Assembly (NCBI GenBank): GCA_964508365.1
Contig: CAZDTP010000045.1
Span: 1 to 33,486 of the forward strand
Length of the DNA stretch: 33,486 nt
Direction of reading: 5' to 3'
DNA from: an uncultured archaeon
GTDB lineage: Archaea; Asgardarchaeota; Lokiarchaeia; Sigyniarchaeales; SOKP01
Below, piece by piece: positions 1,484 to 12,902 of this stretch (the first letter of the stretch is position 1; each line of letters opens with the position of its first letter). The position numbers were made by a program, and so were the translations under genes. Under the pieces are notes generated by a model. The model did no database searches, was not told where the DNA came from, and was given only the letters and a program-made list of their open reading frames with translations.

Positions 1484-2299
1484 TTAATTAGTTTTTCTTA
1501 TGATAATTGCATTTTTATCTATAACTTCTTTAAATCTCAATTTTCTAAGCTTTTTTGGAAATATTAAATCTATCTCATCGTATAAATATCCACTTGAATC
1601 AATGGGACCTTCAATTACCCTTAGTTTTGAAGGCGATATAAAATCTTTTTCGAACGATATTATTTTACTATTTCCTGGAAATTTCCTTTTTAATATCGTC
1701 CCAAAAGTGTTACATGCTACAACTGGTATCCTGTTTTCTAGAGCTCGAGTTTTTAAATATGTTTTCCAATTTAACATCCCATCTACATTAATTTGCGTAG
1801 GAGAAAACAATAGATCAGCCCCACTTTCTGCAGCTAGCCTAGGGGTTTCAAAAAATGCCATGTCAAAACAAATTAAAATTGTAAAACTGATTTTTTTAAA
1901 TGAAAAAACTATTAATTCTTTACCTGGTTCAAATTTAAGCTTTTCATATGAATAAAGATGTATTTTATCTTGTCTATTAATCTCATCTCCATTATTATCA
2001 AAGAAATAGCTAGTTATTCTCGGTTTAATCGTATCTTTTCTTTTTTCCCATAAGGCTCCTGATATTATACCTATTCCATATTCTTTTGCTAAATTTTTTA
2101 TAAATTTATAATTATGTCCCCTTTCTTTTTGAATATTAAGTTCTTTTCCATTAGTAATTGATGTCCATCTTTCTGGTAAACAAATAATATCACAATTATT
2201 GTGGTGTTTAATAAGAGAATTCAATATTTTTTCTACTTCAGAGTAACTTTTATCTATTTGGGGTAAAATTTCTGGTTGAATACAAGCAAGACGTATCAT
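1484..2299 (-). CDS. Carbon-nitrogen hydrolase (nitrilase superfamily)
   Basis: Glu-Lys-Cys triad motifs ICLPERW, QDKIHLY and ILICFDMAFFE. Its ATG shares base 2299 with the upstream HAD stop (TAATG). Confidence 0.9.
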   Translation of the reverse strand: MIRLACIQPEILPQIDKSYSEVEKILNSLIKHHNNCDIICLPERWTSITNGKELNIQKERGHNYKFIKNLAKEYGIGIISGALWEKRKDTIKPRITSYFFDNNGDEINRQDKIHLYSYEKLKFEPGKELIVFSFKKISFTILICFDMAFFETPRLAAESGADLLFSPTQINVDGMLNWKTYLKTRALENRIPVVACNTFGTILKRKFPGNSKIISFEKDFISPSKLRVIEGPIDSSGYLYDEIDLIFPKKLRKLRFKEVIDKNAIIIRKTN

Positions 2300-3054
2300 T
2301 AGACTTTTCCGATATAGAATTTTTTATTGATATCAATAATGATATTATAAAGTTCGTTTAGCCTTGAAATTTCATGATCAGGTTTGTTTTCTTCAGAGAT
2401 AATTTCACCTGTAATATTGATATCATATTTTCCCCCACGATGTATATAAACGCTATGGATTTTATTAATTTTAGCTGGTATTATATCCTTGTAAATATTA
2501 TCTCCAACATAAATCGTCTCGTGTCCCTTTACCTTAAATTTATTTAAACAATAAGAAAATAGCTCAGGGTTTGGTTTTCTAATCCCTATTTCATCTGATA
2601 TTACAACTAAATCAATTAAATCGTTTATCCCAAGTCGTAAAATCTTCTCATATTGCTTGATAGGAATTCCATCCGTTATAATAGCAGTTTTAATTGAAGT
2701 TTTCTTAAGTTTTTCCAAGCATTTTAAAACATCGTCGTATAGTTGAATATGCTTAATTTTTTGAGAATGGTAAGCCATTACTGCTGCAGCAATGTATCTA
2801 GCTTGCTCGTTAAAAGTAATTGCATAATTTTCATATTGGTTTAATCTCCTAATAAAGTAATCATAGTGCTTTGAAGAATTAGAACCATATTCATCGACGA
2901 TTTCTTGGATTAAGATTAAGGCTTTTTGCCTCTCAATTTTCAACCCTAAGCTTATCATCGCATCTACACCCTTAACTCTTGCTCTTTGAGAAAGACCGGT
3001 TGAATCGAAAAGGCAATCATCAAGGTCAAATCCTACAAGTTTTATAGCGCACAT
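2299..3054 (-). CDS. HAD-superfamily hydrolase, subfamily IA (archaeal TIGR02253-like)
   Basis: Motif I FDLDDCL, motif II IITDG, motif III KPNP, motif IV YVGDNIYKD. GGAG Shine-Dalgarno upstream. Confidence 0.92.
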   Translation of the reverse strand: MCAIKLVGFDLDDCLFDSTGLSQRARVKGVDAMISLGLKIERQKALILIQEIVDEYGSNSSKHYDYFIRRLNQYENYAITFNEQARYIAAAVMAYHSQKIKHIQLYDDVLKCLEKLKKTSIKTAIITDGIPIKQYEKILRLGINDLIDLVVISDEIGIRKPNPELFSYCLNKFKVKGHETIYVGDNIYKDIIPAKINKIHSVYIHRGGKYDINITGEIISEENKPDHEISRLNELYNIIIDINKKFYIGKV

Positions 3055-3205: not shown

Positions 3206-4366
3206 TTGAAACCTATTGTAGCATTATCTTATTTTCATCGAAAGATTGGTCCACTTGTGTTTTATTCATATCCTGAAAATATGTTAGATGAACAGCTTTC
3301 AACGAGAATAGCAAATATAATGGATCAAACAGTAAGCGAAGGATTTTTTACTCATTCTTTTGAACAAAATATCTCAAACAACTACTATTTTGAAATACCT
3401 TCTGATTGGGCTCGTGGAAATAAGGATATGTTAATGGTTTCTATAATTTTTGATCAACAAATTAATTCGGAAATAGAGCAAAATGTAAACATCTTATGCA
3501 CAGAATTTCTTGAAAAATTACTCTCTAACGAGGAGATTTTCACTGCGTTTTATATAAATGATATTAATAATTTTGAGGAATATGACAAAGACCTTATTCA
3601 TAAAAACAATTCTTTAATAAAATTATGGGTTAAGGAGTTATATTGGGCAACACTTGAAGATACCAGAGAAAAAAGCGAGGAAGAGAAGATTGCAGCGTTA
3701 TTAAATAAAAAACATGTATTTTTAACATTAAAAAAACTTTCAAAAGGCCCAATTGCTTTAGATGGATTAAGAGAATGGTATAACAATGCGTTTCCAAAAT
3801 TAGGTTTTAAAGAGTTAATCGATACTTTAGTCTCCAAACAGTTTATTTTCATAAATCAAATTGGGATTGTAGAGAAGTATGTGTTATTATTGAAGGAAGT
3901 TAGCGCTGAAAGAATACCTCCCGATAGTGTAATAGAATATATTGACGAAAATCCCGATTTAATTGAACTTGAGCTAATTGAATTATTACTACCAAAAGTA
4001 CAGGAGTATTTTAGTATTTACGAAAATAAAAATCAAAAAGAATTGGAGGAAGATACATTCACTTTATTTCAGATTGTTTCTGATCCAAAAAAATATAATC
4101 TACTATCAGAATTAAGAAATGGGCTAATTTCTAAAGACAAATTACCAAAATTAGTCTCAAAAAGAGCACTTGACCACCTCAACTCTTCGTTGTCCTTCCT
4201 AAAAAAATATGATGTAATTGAAGAATTAAAATATAAAAGCGAGCGATATATTTTTTTAAAAACTAATATTCAGATCACTACTGCCTTTCCCGAATATTTG
4301 AGAAAATCATTACCTCAGGAATCTAAACCAGTAATTGCAAAAAAATATAAACCAAAAGGAGATTAA
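3206..4366 (+). CDS. Longin/uDENN-domain protein (NPRL2/FLCN/SMCR8-like N-terminus) with probable tandem winged-helix C-terminus
   Basis: SYFHRKIGPLVFYSYPE resembles NPRL2 SEFHPTLGPKITYQVPE, and DWARGN resembles FLCN/SMCR8 xARG. Two helix-helix-helix-beta-hairpin segments follow. TTG start with upstream GGAG. Confidence 0.7.
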   Translation: MKPIVALSYFHRKIGPLVFYSYPENMLDEQLSTRIANIMDQTVSEGFFTHSFEQNISNNYYFEIPSDWARGNKDMLMVSIIFDQQINSEIEQNVNILCTEFLEKLLSNEEIFTAFYINDINNFEEYDKDLIHKNNSLIKLWVKELYWATLEDTREKSEEEKIAALLNKKHVFLTLKKLSKGPIALDGLREWYNNAFPKLGFKELIDTLVSKQFIFINQIGIVEKYVLLLKEVSAERIPPDSVIEYIDENPDLIELELIELLLPKVQEYFSIYENKNQKELEEDTFTLFQIVSDPKKYNLLSELRNGLISKDKLPKLVSKRALDHLNSSLSFLKKYDVIEELKYKSERYIFLKTNIQITTAFPEYLRKSLPQESKPVIAKKYKPKGD

Positions 4367-4372
4367 GAGCCT

Positions 4373-4624
4373 ATGAGTAAGGGGGAAGAATCGCTCCAGG
4401 ATTTAAAATGCTTACTTGGGAACATGGGGATTGAAATATTTTTCGCAATCGAAAGGGGAGCGAAAGATTGTGAGACTATGAAAATATTCTCAGGGTTACC
4501 AATGGCTTGTATTAAAGGAAGGGTACCGGTTCTCCTCGAATTAAACCTTGTAAAAAAAGATATCGAAGGATACATTTTAACGAAAAAGGGTTTGAGCTTT
4601 AAGAAAAAGATCGAAAACGACTAA
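4373..4624 (+). CDS. Small winged-helix-like protein
   Basis: 83 aa ending LLELNLVKKDIEGYILTKKG, a typical wHTH wing (Y-x-L-T-x-x-G). GGAG upstream; 6 nt after the longin gene. Confidence 0.6.
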   Translation: MSKGEESLQDLKCLLGNMGIEIFFAIERGAKDCETMKIFSGLPMACIKGRVPVLLELNLVKKDIEGYILTKKGLSFKKKIEND

Positions 4625-7553: not shown

Positions 7554-9965
7554 CTATTTTTCCGGTTTCTTCTTAAATTTAAAATAGAGAGTTTTATCTA
7601 GGATATTCCCAATTTTTGTGGCAAGATTGTTAGAAATTTTGTAGCGTTCCCCTTCTAGCATCTGTTTAATTTCTTCAGGATTCGGAAGACGATTTAGTCT
7701 CTCAGAAAGTACATTATTAGTAAAAGTAGTTATTTCATGTTCTATTCTTTCCATATTAGGTAATTTCATATCTGGAACGAGAGATTTAATTTTTTCGATC
7801 GTAAACAAATAAAACTCGCAGAATCTAGAAAAACTATCACCCTTTAATCCACTGTGTAACTGAATTTGCTCGGTAAGTGTTTTTGTATCTTTTTCGCTCC
7901 AATAAAACTGACGTGGATTCATCCCACGGCGGCTAATCCCCATTAAATTTGATGTAATTTTACGTTCAATCCAATTAAATGTGCTTTCTTGGCGTAACTT
8001 AATAATTTCTTTTTTTTTATCATCCTCTATTTTCTTTTTTTCTACATTCGCACTTTCAATTTTAACTTTTTCTAATTCTCCTAATTCTTCAAATCTTTTT
8101 ATTAGATCATAAGCTACACAATAGGATACAGGAGATACTAAATCCGCTTTTAGCTTTAAGGGGGATATACCCTTATAAACATAACTTTCTTGGCTCTTTA
8201 ACTCTGTAATACTTTCTTTGAGAGACTTTTTCATCAAACGAGATAATATAAATCCATTTATAAGAAAAACTTGATTGACAGCATTAAAAACTACTACTAG
8301 TTCTTTTTGCCTCTTCATAATTCTTTCGATACTTAATTCCTCCAGTTTAACTTGAACCCAATCTTCATAACCTTTGGTTTCTGTAACTACCATTAGAGCT
8401 TGTGAGTAAATCGCCTTATCATTTGAAAGTATACCATACAATTCGATTATTCTACTTAATTGTCTTAGAATTTTCGACAATATATTGTAAAACAAATCTG
8501 TTACTATATTATTTAATATCTCGTCATAGTCAAGAAGAAGAATTATTTGAGAGTAGTTGCTTAAATTCAAACCTTGAAAGAAAATTTTATCGACTGTTTG
8601 TTTTTTCCTTACAAACTCTCTCAGATCGTTTATATTTATCTCTGTTTTATTTTCTAAAATATCCCATAACTCGTTATATTCAGTTTCATTTCTATAGAGA
8701 ATTTTAAATAAATCGAATTCAAAATTATCAGCAACTTTTGTCATAAATTTCTCAAGATTTGGAAATTTTATACTAAATAATGCTTTTTTTGAAATATTTA
8801 TCAAATTTTTTTGATTGTCATTTAAAAGGATTAGATCTTGTTTTTTTATATTATATCTTATCATACTTTTCTTTACATTTTCAGCTAACTCATAATCAAC
8901 ATTCATTAAGTGTAATGTATTTTTAATTCCTCTTTTATTAAGTAAAAAAATAGCATCCTCAAAACTTGATTCGTTTAAACTTTGAAGGAAATAGATAAAA
9001 TCATTTGGATTTTTTTTTAATTGCTTAACAAGAGCCAATTTTAATTCTGAAAGAATTTTCTCTTCAAAATCGTCATATTTAAGATTCTCCTTAAACGCGT
9101 TTTCAATCGATTTGATAGTTTTTTTTTTTAAATTATTCCCTTCGATAAAAGTTTTTAACCCAGATATTGATATAGGAAATTTATTTAATTCATATTCCAT
9201 GATATGTTTCTTTATCATCCGGATAGGCATTGTTTGAATTGATAATTCCTTATATGATTTAAATTCAAATAGTTTTTGCATCCTCTCAATTAATCTATTT
9301 AAAGTAAAAACCTCAATAAATTTATCTTCTTTCTCTTCCTGGCCTAATTGTTCTTCAATTGGTATCGAGATGCCTTTAAACGCAGCGCTTTCTTCTAAAA
9401 TTTCCATTTTTATGATTTCATTTAAACCAATAATATCCCCTATAAAATCGTAAAAATAAAAGGATGGTAATTTGGATATAATGTTTAATAGTTCTCGTTC
9501 AATTTGATCTTCAATTTCCTCTATTTTTTTCTTTCTCTGAGTTTTTTGTAAATTACCTACCCTGTCATCTATTAATAATAATAAGAACATATTCTCTAAA
9601 TTAATAATTTCATCGAAAAGAACTCTTTCTAATTCAAAAGAATTTTTTAAAAAAGTCTCAACTTCTTCCATTAGAATCTGTTTCTCTACCATTTCAAGCT
9701 GTTGAGTCGAATCAACTGTCAACTTGTTTTTATCTAAAGATTCTTCTACTTTTATACCCATATAATGATACAAATGAACTGCTGCAGTAGCTATTAGAAG
9801 AGAGCGTAACGTTGGTTCTTTATGAATCAATTCGAAAATCTTTTCTTTATCAGCTTCTCTTTTCAAATGGGAAATTATTAAATCGACAGTCTGAAAAAAC
9901 CTAGAGGCACTTTCAGTCGCTGTTGATTTTCTTTTTACTCCGCTTATCATAACTTTTTTATCCAT
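7554..9965 (-). CDS. Large (803 aa) predominantly alpha-helical hypothetical protein
   Basis: Long ORF with amphipathic or coiled-coil-like periodicity and no recognisable catalytic motif. Its start overlaps the upstream gene by 19 nt. Confidence 0.85.
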   Translation of the reverse strand: MDKKVMISGVKRKSTATESASRFFQTVDLIISHLKREADKEKIFELIHKEPTLRSLLIATAAVHLYHYMGIKVEESLDKNKLTVDSTQQLEMVEKQILMEEVETFLKNSFELERVLFDEIINLENMFLLLLIDDRVGNLQKTQRKKKIEEIEDQIERELLNIISKLPSFYFYDFIGDIIGLNEIIKMEILEESAAFKGISIPIEEQLGQEEKEDKFIEVFTLNRLIERMQKLFEFKSYKELSIQTMPIRMIKKHIMEYELNKFPISISGLKTFIEGNNLKKKTIKSIENAFKENLKYDDFEEKILSELKLALVKQLKKNPNDFIYFLQSLNESSFEDAIFLLNKRGIKNTLHLMNVDYELAENVKKSMIRYNIKKQDLILLNDNQKNLINISKKALFSIKFPNLEKFMTKVADNFEFDLFKILYRNETEYNELWDILENKTEININDLREFVRKKQTVDKIFFQGLNLSNYSQIILLLDYDEILNNIVTDLFYNILSKILRQLSRIIELYGILSNDKAIYSQALMVVTETKGYEDWVQVKLEELSIERIMKRQKELVVVFNAVNQVFLINGFILSRLMKKSLKESITELKSQESYVYKGISPLKLKADLVSPVSYCVAYDLIKRFEELGELEKVKIESANVEKKKIEDDKKKEIIKLRQESTFNWIERKITSNLMGISRRGMNPRQFYWSEKDTKTLTEQIQLHSGLKGDSFSRFCEFYLFTIEKIKSLVPDMKLPNMERIEHEITTFTNNVLSERLNRLPNPEEIKQMLEGERYKISNNLATKIGNILDKTLYFKFKKKPEK

Positions 9966-12271
9966 TCTCTATATACTTCCTTAAAATTGTCTGCAATATC
10001 ATATTTAGCTTTATTGTGCCAGTACTTAAACTCAAAAACATGAAATAAGTCAGCGCTGAATAAGTCAACTTCTTCCGCTGTTAGTTCTTGTTTCAAAATC
10101 AGAGAAACTGGTCGAGGTATTAATTTTGAGAAATATTTGAGCTCCTTTTCCTTTATATAATTATAAAATGTGTTCTGTTCATCAATACTAAGATATTTTA
10201 AAGAAAGAATTTTTTCTTGTTCAATATTAAATAAGTTAATTTCTTTTTCAACTTTATTTTGGAGATACTTTGGAAATTCAGTTTTGATACCAATACAAAA
10301 TTCATAATGTTTATAGAAATCTATTAAAATTTCTTTTTCTACCTCATTTGAAATCCTTAAAATATATTTGTCTAAAAATTTGAAGAATGTTTCTGGTTTT
10401 TGTTCGTCTGATTCTCGTTCTTCCAAATATTTTATAAATTCAAATAATGTTTCATCCAAAGACCAATCTCGTATTTCTTCAATATTAAAAAATTTTTTAG
10501 CATAATCTTTTATCCATTCTAATATATATGTTTTCCAAGTTAAATTTATCGCCCCGATCCGCTTTTCTAAGAAGCGATGGAATCTATTTGTAAAAGTAAC
10601 TGGATCACTAATTTCTCCATCTGGTTCTTCTTTAAGAAATCGATTAATAGTAGTAAATCTCAAAATATAACTTAATAAATATTTTAATTCATTTGAGAAA
10701 CATTCAAATTTCTTTAAATGCGAGTTTATTAATTTTGAATCTTTTTCCATTTGTACTTCGGCGAAGGCAATTAAGTCACTTATGCTTAAATTAATGCTAC
10801 CAAAGAATGATTTGATGTTATCATTTACTAACTTTTTAAATTCTCTATTCAATATATCTTCGTTAAAAGTACCACCTTCTAACAATACAATTGGATTTAT
10901 CTCTATCTGCGAAATTAAGTGTTGTTCGAATTTACTTAAAATATTTTGCCCTAAAATTTTAGAAGGTTTTTGTTCATTTTCAAATTTTTCGTGCAAAACT
11001 CTAATAAAGTGATAGGTCAAAGTATTTAGTCTTCGGCGTGATAAATATCGTGGAAACGAGTTTCTAATACATACTATGCTATTTTTAACGACTTCTGCGA
11101 AATATTTTATTACAGAACTTAATTCACTTGCCCTCAGCTTTCCTTCACTAATAATTGATAGTGTTATTGAATTTATAGCTAATTCGCTGAGATCTCTATA
11201 AAAATCATTATTTTCTTCAGAATTGTCAATCATAAATGAGTTAAATTTTTCTAACAACTCCGAGATATTCCCTATTTCGCCGGTCGTTAGGAATTTCTTA
11301 GAAATTATTAAAAATTTATCAACTTTGACATTAAATTCAATTAAAATTTTTTCCATAAAGGAAATTATTTCGACACCAGAGACGAATTCTTGATTTTTAC
11401 TAAAACTTTCCTCAATTTTAGCAATAAAATATGATATAGTCTTTTCTTGGATTTCATCTATTGTCCCAATATTAGCTAACTTAAGTAAATTGGTTCCTAG
11501 GATTAGCGTTTTTTCAATAATAAAATTAGCACTCGGCTCTGAAATCGCAAATTTAAGGTGATCTATTGTTGACTTTCCAATATATGGCGATTTAAGCCGA
11601 TTATATTTTTGATCTGAAAATATAATCTCAATAGGGCTTTTATTCCAGAGATAATTTACATCCGTTTTTATCGATCCATAAGTAGATAACATTTCTTTTT
11701 CAGTTGGTAAAGAAACGTTTAAGCCTATTAATTTTTTATTCCATTTATCCTCAATCAAATCCCCATAAAGTTTTTTGCTAAATCGATTAGCAAATTTATT
11801 ATAAACTTGAATTTTTTTTTGATGTTCTAAAAGTGGATGATTAGAAAACTCTTCTACTTCGTAAAATAATTTACTTATATCATTAAGTGATTCTCTTGAT
11901 TTGTGTGGATCTAAATATCCAGTTTCTGGTTTTAAAGCAAGTAATAAACTTTCACACTCCTTGTATTTACCAGGAATGAGTATCATCGATTTTGGGTAAA
12001 TATTCATTTGAGCGTCTTTTTGGTTATAATTATACAATTCAAATTCTATTGAAAATACTTCAGAACCAGCAAAGTCCCTCAAAATAGCATTATACATTCG
12101 AAGATATGTTATTACTTCCTTAGAAAGCGCGTTCACCATTTCTTTAGTTAGTTTTCCTGGTCCTATTACATCTCCGGCTATTAAATCTGTGGGACTAGAG
12201 TACCCAAAGATTAAAGAAAATTGAAAATTAATAGACTCACGTGTAGTTATCATAATTTCGTTTTTTTTCAA
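9947..12271 (-). CDS. Large (774 aa) hypothetical protein, alpha/beta N-terminal domain followed by a helical body
   Basis: Long ORF; start is TTG 12271 or ATG 12253. No Walker or TM motifs. Confidence 0.85.
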   Translation of the reverse strand: MKKNEIMITTRESINFQFSLIFGYSSPTDLIAGDVIGPGKLTKEMVNALSKEVITYLRMYNAILRDFAGSEVFSIEFELYNYNQKDAQMNIYPKSMILIPGKYKECESLLLALKPETGYLDPHKSRESLNDISKLFYEVEEFSNHPLLEHQKKIQVYNKFANRFSKKLYGDLIEDKWNKKLIGLNVSLPTEKEMLSTYGSIKTDVNYLWNKSPIEIIFSDQKYNRLKSPYIGKSTIDHLKFAISEPSANFIIEKTLILGTNLLKLANIGTIDEIQEKTISYFIAKIEESFSKNQEFVSGVEIISFMEKILIEFNVKVDKFLIISKKFLTTGEIGNISELLEKFNSFMIDNSEENNDFYRDLSELAINSITLSIISEGKLRASELSSVIKYFAEVVKNSIVCIRNSFPRYLSRRRLNTLTYHFIRVLHEKFENEQKPSKILGQNILSKFEQHLISQIEINPIVLLEGGTFNEDILNREFKKLVNDNIKSFFGSINLSISDLIAFAEVQMEKDSKLINSHLKKFECFSNELKYLLSYILRFTTINRFLKEEPDGEISDPVTFTNRFHRFLEKRIGAINLTWKTYILEWIKDYAKKFFNIEEIRDWSLDETLFEFIKYLEERESDEQKPETFFKFLDKYILRISNEVEKEILIDFYKHYEFCIGIKTEFPKYLQNKVEKEINLFNIEQEKILSLKYLSIDEQNTFYNYIKEKELKYFSKLIPRPVSLILKQELTAEEVDLFSADLFHVFEFKYWHNKAKYDIADNFKEVYREWIKKL

Positions 12272-12497: not shown

Positions 12498-12902
12498 TTG
12501 GAGTTTGGTACAGACCTTGGAATTGGGCCCAATGAAATAGAAAAAATAAGTCCTCAAATTACTTTTATCACCTCAAACGCGGATATAGAAGCTATCGCAC
12601 TTGTAAGCTTGGAAGGTTATCAGATCGCTTTTTCAGCTCTTCCACAATATCAAGTTGATGGAGATCAGTTTTGTGGACTAGCTAGTGCATTGTTAATGAC
12701 GGGAAGTTCAACAATTAAAACATTATTTCAAGAAGATTTAAGTGAAATAATTGTGAGAGCAGAGAATGGCTATATAATTGTTAGTAACGCAGGTCGTCTA
12801 GTAATTGTATGTGCGGGAACTATTATTGATACTTTGATGAAAACTGTTAAAGTAATGAGAGTTGCTGCAAAGAAGTTAGCTATGATTTTTGAACAAAAAT
12901 GA
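12498..12902 (+). CDS. Roadblock/LC7 (MglB-like) domain protein
   Basis: IEAIALVSLEGYQIA, GLASALL, EIIVRAENGYIIVSNAG, MRVAAKKL are the roadblock pattern. GGTGAT SD before the TTG. Confidence 0.9.
   Translation: MEFGTDLGIGPNEIEKISPQITFITSNADIEAIALVSLEGYQIAFSALPQYQVDGDQFCGLASALLMTGSSTIKTLFQEDLSEIIVRAENGYIIVSNAGRLVIVCAGTIIDTLMKTVKVMRVAAKKLAMIFEQK

Follow-up and report, generated by a model that had tools for sequence, protein, structure and literature searches.

The eukaryotic longin complexes that act as GTPase-activating proteins (GAPs), namely GATOR1, folliculin and C9orf72-SMCR8, work at the lysosome, where they turn off Rag and Arf GTPases. The origin of these complexes is a question in eukaryogenesis on which the protein described here bears. 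It is the 386-residue product of a gene at positions 3206–4366 of the forward strand in a 33,486-nucleotide stretch of DNA from an uncultured archaeon (Asgardarchaeota, Lokiarchaeia, Sigyniarchaeales; contig CAZDTP010000045.1 of assembly GCA_964508365.1), and this whole stretch is called the window below. On balance, we read the protein as a regulator of an Arf/Rag/Ras-like GTPase belonging to the NPRL2/folliculin/SMCR8 class ("GAP-type longin"), and as a candidate small-GTPase regulator it is well supported.

NPRL2 and NPRL3 consist of a longin domain and two or more winged helices (PMC3747258). GAP-type longins are marked by an arginine finger and by a Gly-Pro pair at the start of strand 2, the "GP motif", which is specific to them and absent from longins of the guanine nucleotide exchange factor (GEF) type; both marks occur in Asgard longins of the FLCN/SMCR8 type, for which possible GAP activity has been proposed (PMC12290439). 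NPRL2-like longin families of Asgard archaea, including fusions to two-component signalling domains, were reported by Liu et al. (bioRxiv 10.1101/2020.10.19.343400). Asgard longin–GTPase fusions are also on record, and operons joining a GTPase to its regulator are generally lacking (PMC10933270).

A first-pass annotation of the window, made from the letters alone, had proposed a longin/uDENN protein that retains the arginine finger of NPRL2, FLCN and SMCR8 in a GATOR1-like layout. The gene and the elements of its N-terminal half are as follows.

3206..4366, forward strand: the whole gene (P0001), encoding a 386-residue protein with a longin domain and two winged helices (open reading frame and translation; AlphaFold2 model, pLDDT 91.4)
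3206..3574, forward strand: longin domain, residues 1–123, strand-strand-helix-strand-strand-strand-helix-helix in the AlphaFold2 model, with VIA-align matches and an NPRL2 profile match
3248..3253, forward strand: GP motif, formed by Gly15-Pro16 where strand 2 (residues 15–22) begins, from conservation and the alignment to NPRL2 G20-P21
3401..3421, forward strand: loop between strands 4 and 5, S66-D-W-A-R70-G-N72, carrying the candidate arginine finger (translation and AlphaFold2 model)
3413–3415, forward strand: codon of Arg70, the candidate arginine finger

The AlphaFold2 model was built from an alignment of 59 sequences, comprising orthologs and more distant relatives from a representative library of 1.8 billion proteins, and reached a predicted local distance difference test score (pLDDT) of 91.4 and a predicted template modelling score (pTM) of 0.81. 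Its longin is made up of strands 4–11 and 15–22, helix 29–41, strands 46–52, 55–65 and 73–82, and helices 88–106 and 111–122. When the model was compared with the PDB by Foldseek, the first ranks were taken by chains of GATOR1 entries (9v0j_A, 9o5d_D, 9o5a_H and 7t3b_B; E 1.6e-5 to 1.7e-4 over 290–420 columns), followed by SEA-complex chains (9h4q_T, 8adl_S) and then by folliculin-complex chains; PDB sequence searches place 9v0j, 7t3b, 9o5a and 9o5d among the entries containing NPRL2 and identify 6nzd_H/8dhb and 6ulg_L as folliculin. An independent VIA-align search of 48,161 representative PDB chains ranked the Lokiarchaeota Roadblock-Longin protein 8yqg first (Z 13.7; 135 residues, 2.9 Å), folliculin 6nzd_H second (Z 13.3), the GATOR1 chain 8fw5_C third (Z 12.8), the SEA-complex chain 8adl_S fourth (Z 11.7), C9orf72-SMCR8 7o2w_A fifth (Z 11.3) and Lst4 sixth (Z 10.9), with the longins of SNARE, adaptor, TRAPP, DENND1 and Mon1-Ccz1 proteins at Z 10.2 and below. 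Over all VIA-align comparisons, folliculin scored Z 13.3–13.8 (136–139 residues, 2.5–2.8 Å), GATOR1/SEA chains Z 11.4–12.8 and generic longins 10.6 or below. Because the six top matches outscore the other longins, the domain is closest to the longin group of the GAP complexes. The predicted longin fold is thus borne out, while "uDENN" holds as a fold label only. No cDENN or dDENN was found in the AlphaFold2 models, in which residues 125–386 form a helix and two winged helices, and a DENN reading of the protein was rejected for want of these modules; DENND1 itself aligns through its longin alone (Z 8.9–9.6).

On this fold, residues 9–17 read YFHRKIGPL and residues 66–72 read SDWARGN. Arg70 lies in the loop 66–72 between strand 4 (55–65) and the last longin strand (73–82) of the model, just where the first-pass annotation had put it. 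The alignment with NPRL2 drawn there by eye was reproduced by HMMER: when the family profile is aligned with human NPRL2, 8 of the 17 residues of SYFHRKIGPLVFYSYPE and SEFHPTLGPKITYQVPE are identical, the family pattern F-[DH]-x-x-x-G-P...Y-x-x-P-E falls on NPRL2 F15-H16...G20-P21...P28-E29, and W-A-R-G-N falls on Y-S-R78-N79 with a slip of one residue within the same loop. Folliculin (PDB 6ulg_L) gives a gapless match of F156-F-I-K-D-S-L-A-R164-G165 to window residues F62-E-I-P-S-D-W-A-R70-G71, with 5/10 residues identical, A-R-G included. Judged from sequence together with secondary structure, Arg70 would correspond to the finger position of the GAP-type longins, being in register with FLCN Arg164 and no more than one residue away from NPRL2 Arg78, as had been claimed. 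A profile of 25 N-terminal (longin) domain sequences, searched against all 177,635 distinct PDB sequences, retrieved human NPRL2 as its sole match (E 0.079, 15.9 bits), which is marginal when taken alone and agrees with the fold result.

Conservation of the two motifs is strict. Y9–P16 (YFHRKIGP), W68, R70, G71 and N72 are invariant in 16 orthologs of 69–92% identity. Among 132 N-domain relatives from a library clustered at 50%, counted over non-gap cells, Arg70 is retained in 111 of 120, Gly15 in 101 of 104 and Pro16 in 99 of 104, with Ser66 (120/123) and Glu74 (114/121) kept as well. This bears on a different explanation, in which the longin would be a non-catalytic GTPase platform, that is an exchange factor, effector or scaffold in the manner of TRAPP, Mon1-Ccz1, Ragulator or MglB, with Arg70 being structural or binding something other than the gamma-phosphate. 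Longin and Roadblock domains are indeed mostly GEF platforms (PMC3747258, PMC10933270), generic longins and the uDENN of DENND1 also align well (Z 9–10), there is a Roadblock gene at a distance of 8 kb, whose homolog in a sister family shares a strand and a gene row with the ortholog, and the Ras-like domain of one fusion protein described below seems unfit for normal nucleotide binding. Yet the best structural matches and the sole sequence match are longins of GAP complexes, GEF-type longins lack the GP motif according to PMC12290439, and the conservation of Arg70 is far above what its surroundings would require, so that we hold a purely platform-like role to be rather unlikely.

As a GAP-type longin, the protein would work as follows. 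The N-terminal longin would dock on the nucleotide face of one of the many Arf/Rag/Ras-like GTPases of the genome. The pocket would be lined by Gly15-Pro16, and GTP hydrolysis would be accelerated by Arg70, which in the strand 4–5 loop would play the part of the catalytic arginine finger. A module for assembly or targeting would be made up of the two winged helices and a separate 83-residue winged-helix protein; its partner could be a second longin subunit or else DNA.

The same type of N-domain is found fused to GTPases. In 64 longer N-domain relatives the partners recognised by Pfam were Arf/Ras/Roc GTPases (14), PAS (5), V4R (2), TBP (1), TIR (1) and a histidine-kinase ATPase (1). A canonical P-loop is present in 16 N-domain relatives, in 15 of which the longin precedes the GTPase; these 15 are 14 database cluster representatives (mostly of 298–330 residues, with outliers of 197 and 833) and one protein of the window's own genome (P0273), and they carry the Arg loop in 15/15 cases, the GP motif in 13/15 and a DxxGQ switch II in 11/15. 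Another fusion, P0045, encoded by a single open reading frame of 672 residues (metagenome contig L001 2810–4828, found also on L002; the two contigs may come from one sample), shares 85% identity with the window protein along the whole length of the latter. Its Ras-like domain (Pfam Ras, E 1.6e-31) is N-terminal and is followed by a Cys-rich linker, then by the complete longin and double winged-helix part, and at the C-terminus by a Cys-rich tail; two further small-GTPase genes flank the P0045 gene. A paralog in the same genome (contig C3, L006 1486–2529, 347 residues) has a GP/Arg longin with the loop YARGG, on which the Pfam Folliculin model scores weakly (13 bits), followed by a divergent small GTPase with the P-loop GPTNAGKS and with NKFQ replacing NKxD. 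Another (contig C14, L004 1291–2256, 321 residues) combines a GP/Arg longin (WARGK, 38% identity) with a TBP-fold domain (Pfam TBP, E 2.4e-19), the longin–TBP fusion being unusual in itself. Own-genome paralogs with the same C-terminal module adjoin an Arf-like gene on contig C57 and a Ras-like gene on contig C115, and the genome as a whole has 69 matches to the Arf and 66 to the Ras hidden Markov model (HMM), largely at the same loci.

Several observations nevertheless speak against the assignment to the GAP-type longins. The E-value of the only profile match to NPRL2 is weak. Pfam NPR2 (PF06218) does not match the protein at E up to 10, nor anything else in the genome, and the Pfam Folliculin model does not match the protein either, although it gives weak matches to other longins of the genome. 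The arginine has been lost in a few stand-alone N-domain relatives. In agreement with the first-pass annotation, which had seen no GTPase gene in the window, its contig has zero Arf-HMM or Ras-HMM matches, and no conserved GTPase neighbour was found at nine distant ortholog or second-copy loci, where the neighbours are a HAD hydrolase, a CN-hydrolase, the 83-residue winged-helix gene, DUF2095, L15e or genes of sugar or inositol metabolism. The P-loop of the Ras-like domain in P0045 is degenerate (GDESDETRS), and for this reason the fused domain may serve for binding and not be a substrate. Finally, the winged helices are mildly basic and closest to those of DNA-binding regulators. As for the Folliculin model, its best matches in the genome, both sub-threshold, are at C104:4757–4933 (21 bits) and C31:38106–38288 (17 bits); one of them lies between two GTPase genes and the other within a 488-residue reading frame with an Arf-type GTPase domain.

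A possible partner for the window protein is offered by a family related to it at both ends. Its representative in this genome, P0272 (contig C53, L005 1069–2172, 367 residues), has a C-terminal module in common with the window protein (E 3.7e-6 within the genome), and the N-domain of its family is homologous to that of the window family (hhalign probability 93%, E 3.5e-7) with a 7-residue gap placed precisely at the S-x-W-A-R-G loop. The family, of about 360–370 residues (relatives L047–L060), was found in 147 of the 201 genomes of a phylum-wide sample and is often present in several copies. It has a W-D-x-x-x-G motif in which W10 and G15 are invariant and D11 nearly so, and this W-D...G resembles W33-D34 of C9orf72. 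The idea that the family is related to C9orf72 or NPRL3 did not find sequence support: its N-domain profile retrieved neither protein from the PDB, giving chance-level matches only, the Roadblock domain of RagA (E ~1) among them. A W-D-type longin is also joined to a Gtr1/RagA-type GTPase (Pfam E 1.8e-18) in a 435-residue protein on contig C15 (L034 1501–2808); a second small-GTPase gene (L034 2847–3197) directly follows that gene.

Tandem longins are a second lead of this kind. In six clusters of 313–395 residues (P0178, P0182, P0208, P0215, P0220 and P0243) an Arg-less longin precedes a GP/Arg longin, and the Arg-less one is related to the family by hhalign (89%, E 2e-6). By analogy, the tandem proteins and the P0272 family echo the eukaryotic pairing of an Arg-bearing with an Arg-less longin, and the P0272 type is a possible non-catalytic partner for the window protein. 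One could go further and suppose that the two pair through their longins and double winged-helix tails into a heterodimeric GAP for an Arf/Rag-like GTPase, like NPRL2-NPRL3 or SMCR8-C9orf72. We put this forward as a speculation with a low chance of being correct; if true, the pair of a catalytic and a non-catalytic longin would predate eukaryotes, and Lokiarchaeia would already possess the two-subunit logic of the longin GAPs.

The rest of the gene and the reading frame after it contain the following features.

3578..3664, forward strand: long connecting helix, residues 125–153 (AlphaFold2 model)
3677..3916, forward strand: winged helix 1, residues 158–237, in which a third strand is added and the motif ERIPPDSVI is invariant (models; isoelectric point (pI) 9.3)
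3923..4081, forward strand: acidic helical linker, residues 240–292 (AlphaFold2 model; pI 4.05)
4085..4285, forward strand: winged helix 2, residues 294–360, followed by the conserved motif FPEYL (models; pI 9.8)
4373..4624, forward strand: gene for an 83-residue winged-helix protein, 6 nucleotides after the stop of the longin gene, with a weak Pfam HTH_45 match

Residues 156–386 were also modelled alone (pLDDT 87.8). With this half, Foldseek retrieved ArsR/SmtB-type regulators best (E 3e-3, probability 1.0, about 2 Å over 70 residues), and VIA-align gave MecI, an archaeal winged-helix protein, cullin WHB, SrnR, SmtB, MarR, PadR and Rpa2 at Z 7.4–8.3. Winged helix 1 is structurally most similar to those of MecI, cullin WHB, MarR and Rpa2 type (Z about 8) and winged helix 2 to the ArsR/SmtB/HlyU type (Foldseek E 3e-3, VIA-align Z 7.4–8). 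NPRL2 and NPRL3 chains were not among the best 50 matches of either program for the C-terminal half. Taken alone, the modelled winged helices look like generic ArsR/MecI/cullin-type domains and not like the C-terminal domain of NPRL2. The two winged-helix segments of the first-pass annotation are present in the model (about 158–237 and 294–360), and its GATOR1-like layout stands as an architecture, a longin followed by winged helices, and not as a demonstrated homology of the tails. Both winged helices are followed by a further strand and by a proline motif that is conserved (ERIPPDSVI; FPEYL), which suggests that the C-terminal half arose by internal duplication of one unit.

These matches are the natural starting point for a third explanation, in which the protein regulates transcription by binding DNA. 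Contact with DNA would be made by the winged helices and the 83-residue partner, and the longin would provide sensing, dimerisation or GTPase-docking input with no GAP catalysis, which amounts to a one-component regulator controlled by a GTPase or a ligand. Besides the resemblance of the C-terminal half to ArsR/SmtB, MecI/BlaI, MarR and PadR regulators, the high pI of both winged helices fits such a role, as do the ArsR/HxlR regulator names attached by JGI to some orthologs and the fusions of the N-domain to TBP (in the own-genome paralog), PAS, V4R and histidine-kinase ATPase domains, which resemble those of signalling input domains. However, the recognition helix of winged helix 1 (FKELIDTLVS) is acidic to neutral with hydrophobic invariant residues and, to judge by these residues, does not resemble one that reads DNA. 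The protein-binding winged helices of cullin WHB and Rpa2 score equally well, the whole protein is acidic (pI 5.3; the longin alone, 4.4), and the strict conservation of the GP and Arg motifs would be left unexplained. We consider DNA-directed regulation without catalysis improbable as the principal function. Neither this explanation nor the platform-like one is fully exclusive of a GAP-type longin, since they would come together in a protein whose longin docks on a GTPase and whose winged helices bind DNA.

The 83-residue gene stays near the longin gene through the whole order (40–96% identity). Some species have the two genes fused, as in P0066 (471 residues) and in open frames of 475 and 489 residues in genomes G171 and G077. 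Because of this coupling and fusion, we treat the product of the small gene as a probable partner subunit or third winged helix.

The reading frame itself is genuine. Its TTG start abuts a TAA and has GGAG about 12 nucleotides upstream, and the orthologs share the start residue as M, L or V; the window is AT-rich, with a GC content of 27–36%. The search for homologs gave 552 proteins, and the best 120 of these have a strikingly high within-family identity of 69–95%. Close homologs come from metagenome-assembled genomes named Lokiarchaeota or Promethearchaeota, and the homologs are called "hypothetical" or ArsR/HxlR regulator, with no Pfam or UniProt-style annotation. Database searches with the protein gave a sub-threshold DUF5118 match and nothing else in Pfam, and no match in NCBIfam. 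The PDB match found by phmmer, a terpene synthase, was dismissed as a chance match, and the full-length family profile found chance or ArsR-type matches only in the PDB. The ESM Atlas offered only leads below 0.9, including one Asgard cluster with PF06218 on 19% of its members.

Full-length orthologs were present in all 40 sampled genomes of the window's family and in 3 of 3 of a sister family in the same order (38–44% identity). In other Asgard families the match is limited to the C-terminal half at about 25% identity. Since full-length orthologs were found in one Lokiarchaeia order only, the protein should be regarded as a lineage-specific member of its class, and the first-pass suggestion of an ancestor of GATOR1/FLCN signalling goes beyond what is demonstrated. 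The remaining interpretation of the protein as a GAP-type longin is, overall, partly supported.

Apart from some insertions and inversions, members of the order have the same succession of genes: HAD hydrolase, longin gene, 83-residue winged-helix gene, DUF2095 and L15e. The HAD-family hydrolase gene (window 2299–3054, reverse strand) is adjacent across the order; the two genes are divergent here and in G162, and share a strand in G083 and G089. Further downstream in the window is a Roadblock/LC7 gene (12498–12902, forward strand; Pfam E 1.9e-8), 8 kb from the longin gene and separated from its region by two helical reading frames of about 800 residues (7554–12271, reverse strand). In G162, a genome of the sister family, a Roadblock homolog (L036 9558–9959) comes after the longin/winged-helix ortholog, a 147-residue reading frame and the small winged-helix gene, all on the same strand.

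GP/Arg and NPRL2-like longins of Asgard archaea have already been published (PMC12290439; bioRxiv 10.1101/2020.10.19.343400), and the window protein is an unannotated member of that class. The additions made here are a match to FLCN Arg164 at the level of the motif, the profile match to NPRL2 only, the full-length fusion to a Ras domain and the coupled or fused small winged-helix subunit, together with two leads to partners, namely the sister family lacking the Arg loop and the tandem longins. With the class itself already described, the gain is a concrete testable family with partner candidates and not a new principle. The window protein is compact, soluble-looking, strongly conserved in its order and equipped with both signature motifs, and its relatives provide natural fusions to GTPases and to a second longin. 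These properties make it a practical bench target for the question whether Asgard archaea already possessed a GAP chemistry based on an arginine finger and a longin.

Of the known systems, NPRL2 (yeast Npr2), the catalytic subunit of GATOR1/SEACIT and GAP for RagA/Gtr1, is similar in length (380 versus 386 residues), in the longin with F-H-x-x-x-G-P...Y-x-x-P-E and an arginine in the strand 4–5 loop, and in providing the best whole-chain Foldseek matches. It differs in that the window protein has no PF06218 match, an Arg loop longer by one residue, winged helices that do not retrieve the NPRL2/3 C-terminal domains among their best 50 matches, and no known DEPDC5-like partner. In FLCN-FNIP, the subunit that acts as GAP for RagC/D is folliculin (FLCN; yeast Lst7). 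It reaches the top structural score for the longin (Z 13.3–13.8) and comes close in F-x-I-x-x-x-x-A-R-G, which is in register with FLCN 156–165, where R164 is the finger; in the window protein, by contrast, no DENN domain follows the longin and the Pfam Folliculin model has no match. The SMCR8-C9orf72 pair (CSW complex), an Arf GAP made of an Arg-bearing and an Arg-less longin, shares the longin (Z 11.3) and the logic of GP and Arg (PMC12290439, PMC8213707), and the archaeal genome also has an Arg-less paralogous family with the same C-terminal module; the DENN domains and WDR41 of that complex have no counterpart in the window protein.

The ArsR/SmtB-type regulators resemble both winged helices, which superpose on them at 2–3 Å over 66–87 residues, but here the units are in tandem, a Pro motif and one more strand are attached to each, and no metal-site or dimerisation-helix features were identified. 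The Lokiarchaeal Roadblock-Longin protein 8yqg, for which our literature search found no paper, gives the best or joint-best longin match, and some N-domain relatives, such as P0138, are themselves Roadblock-longin fusions; its identity is 13%, however, and its partner domain is Roadblock instead of winged helices. Also close are the published Asgard NPRL2-like and GP-motif longins (bioRxiv 10.1101/2020.10.19.343400; Traffic 2025, PMC12290439). Although the available parts of these two texts make no mention of the double winged-helix tail of the window subfamily, its coupled 83-residue winged-helix gene or the full-length Ras-like fusion, they describe longins that have the phylum, the motifs and the inferred function in common with the window protein, as well as N-domain fusions to PAS and histidine-kinase-type domains.

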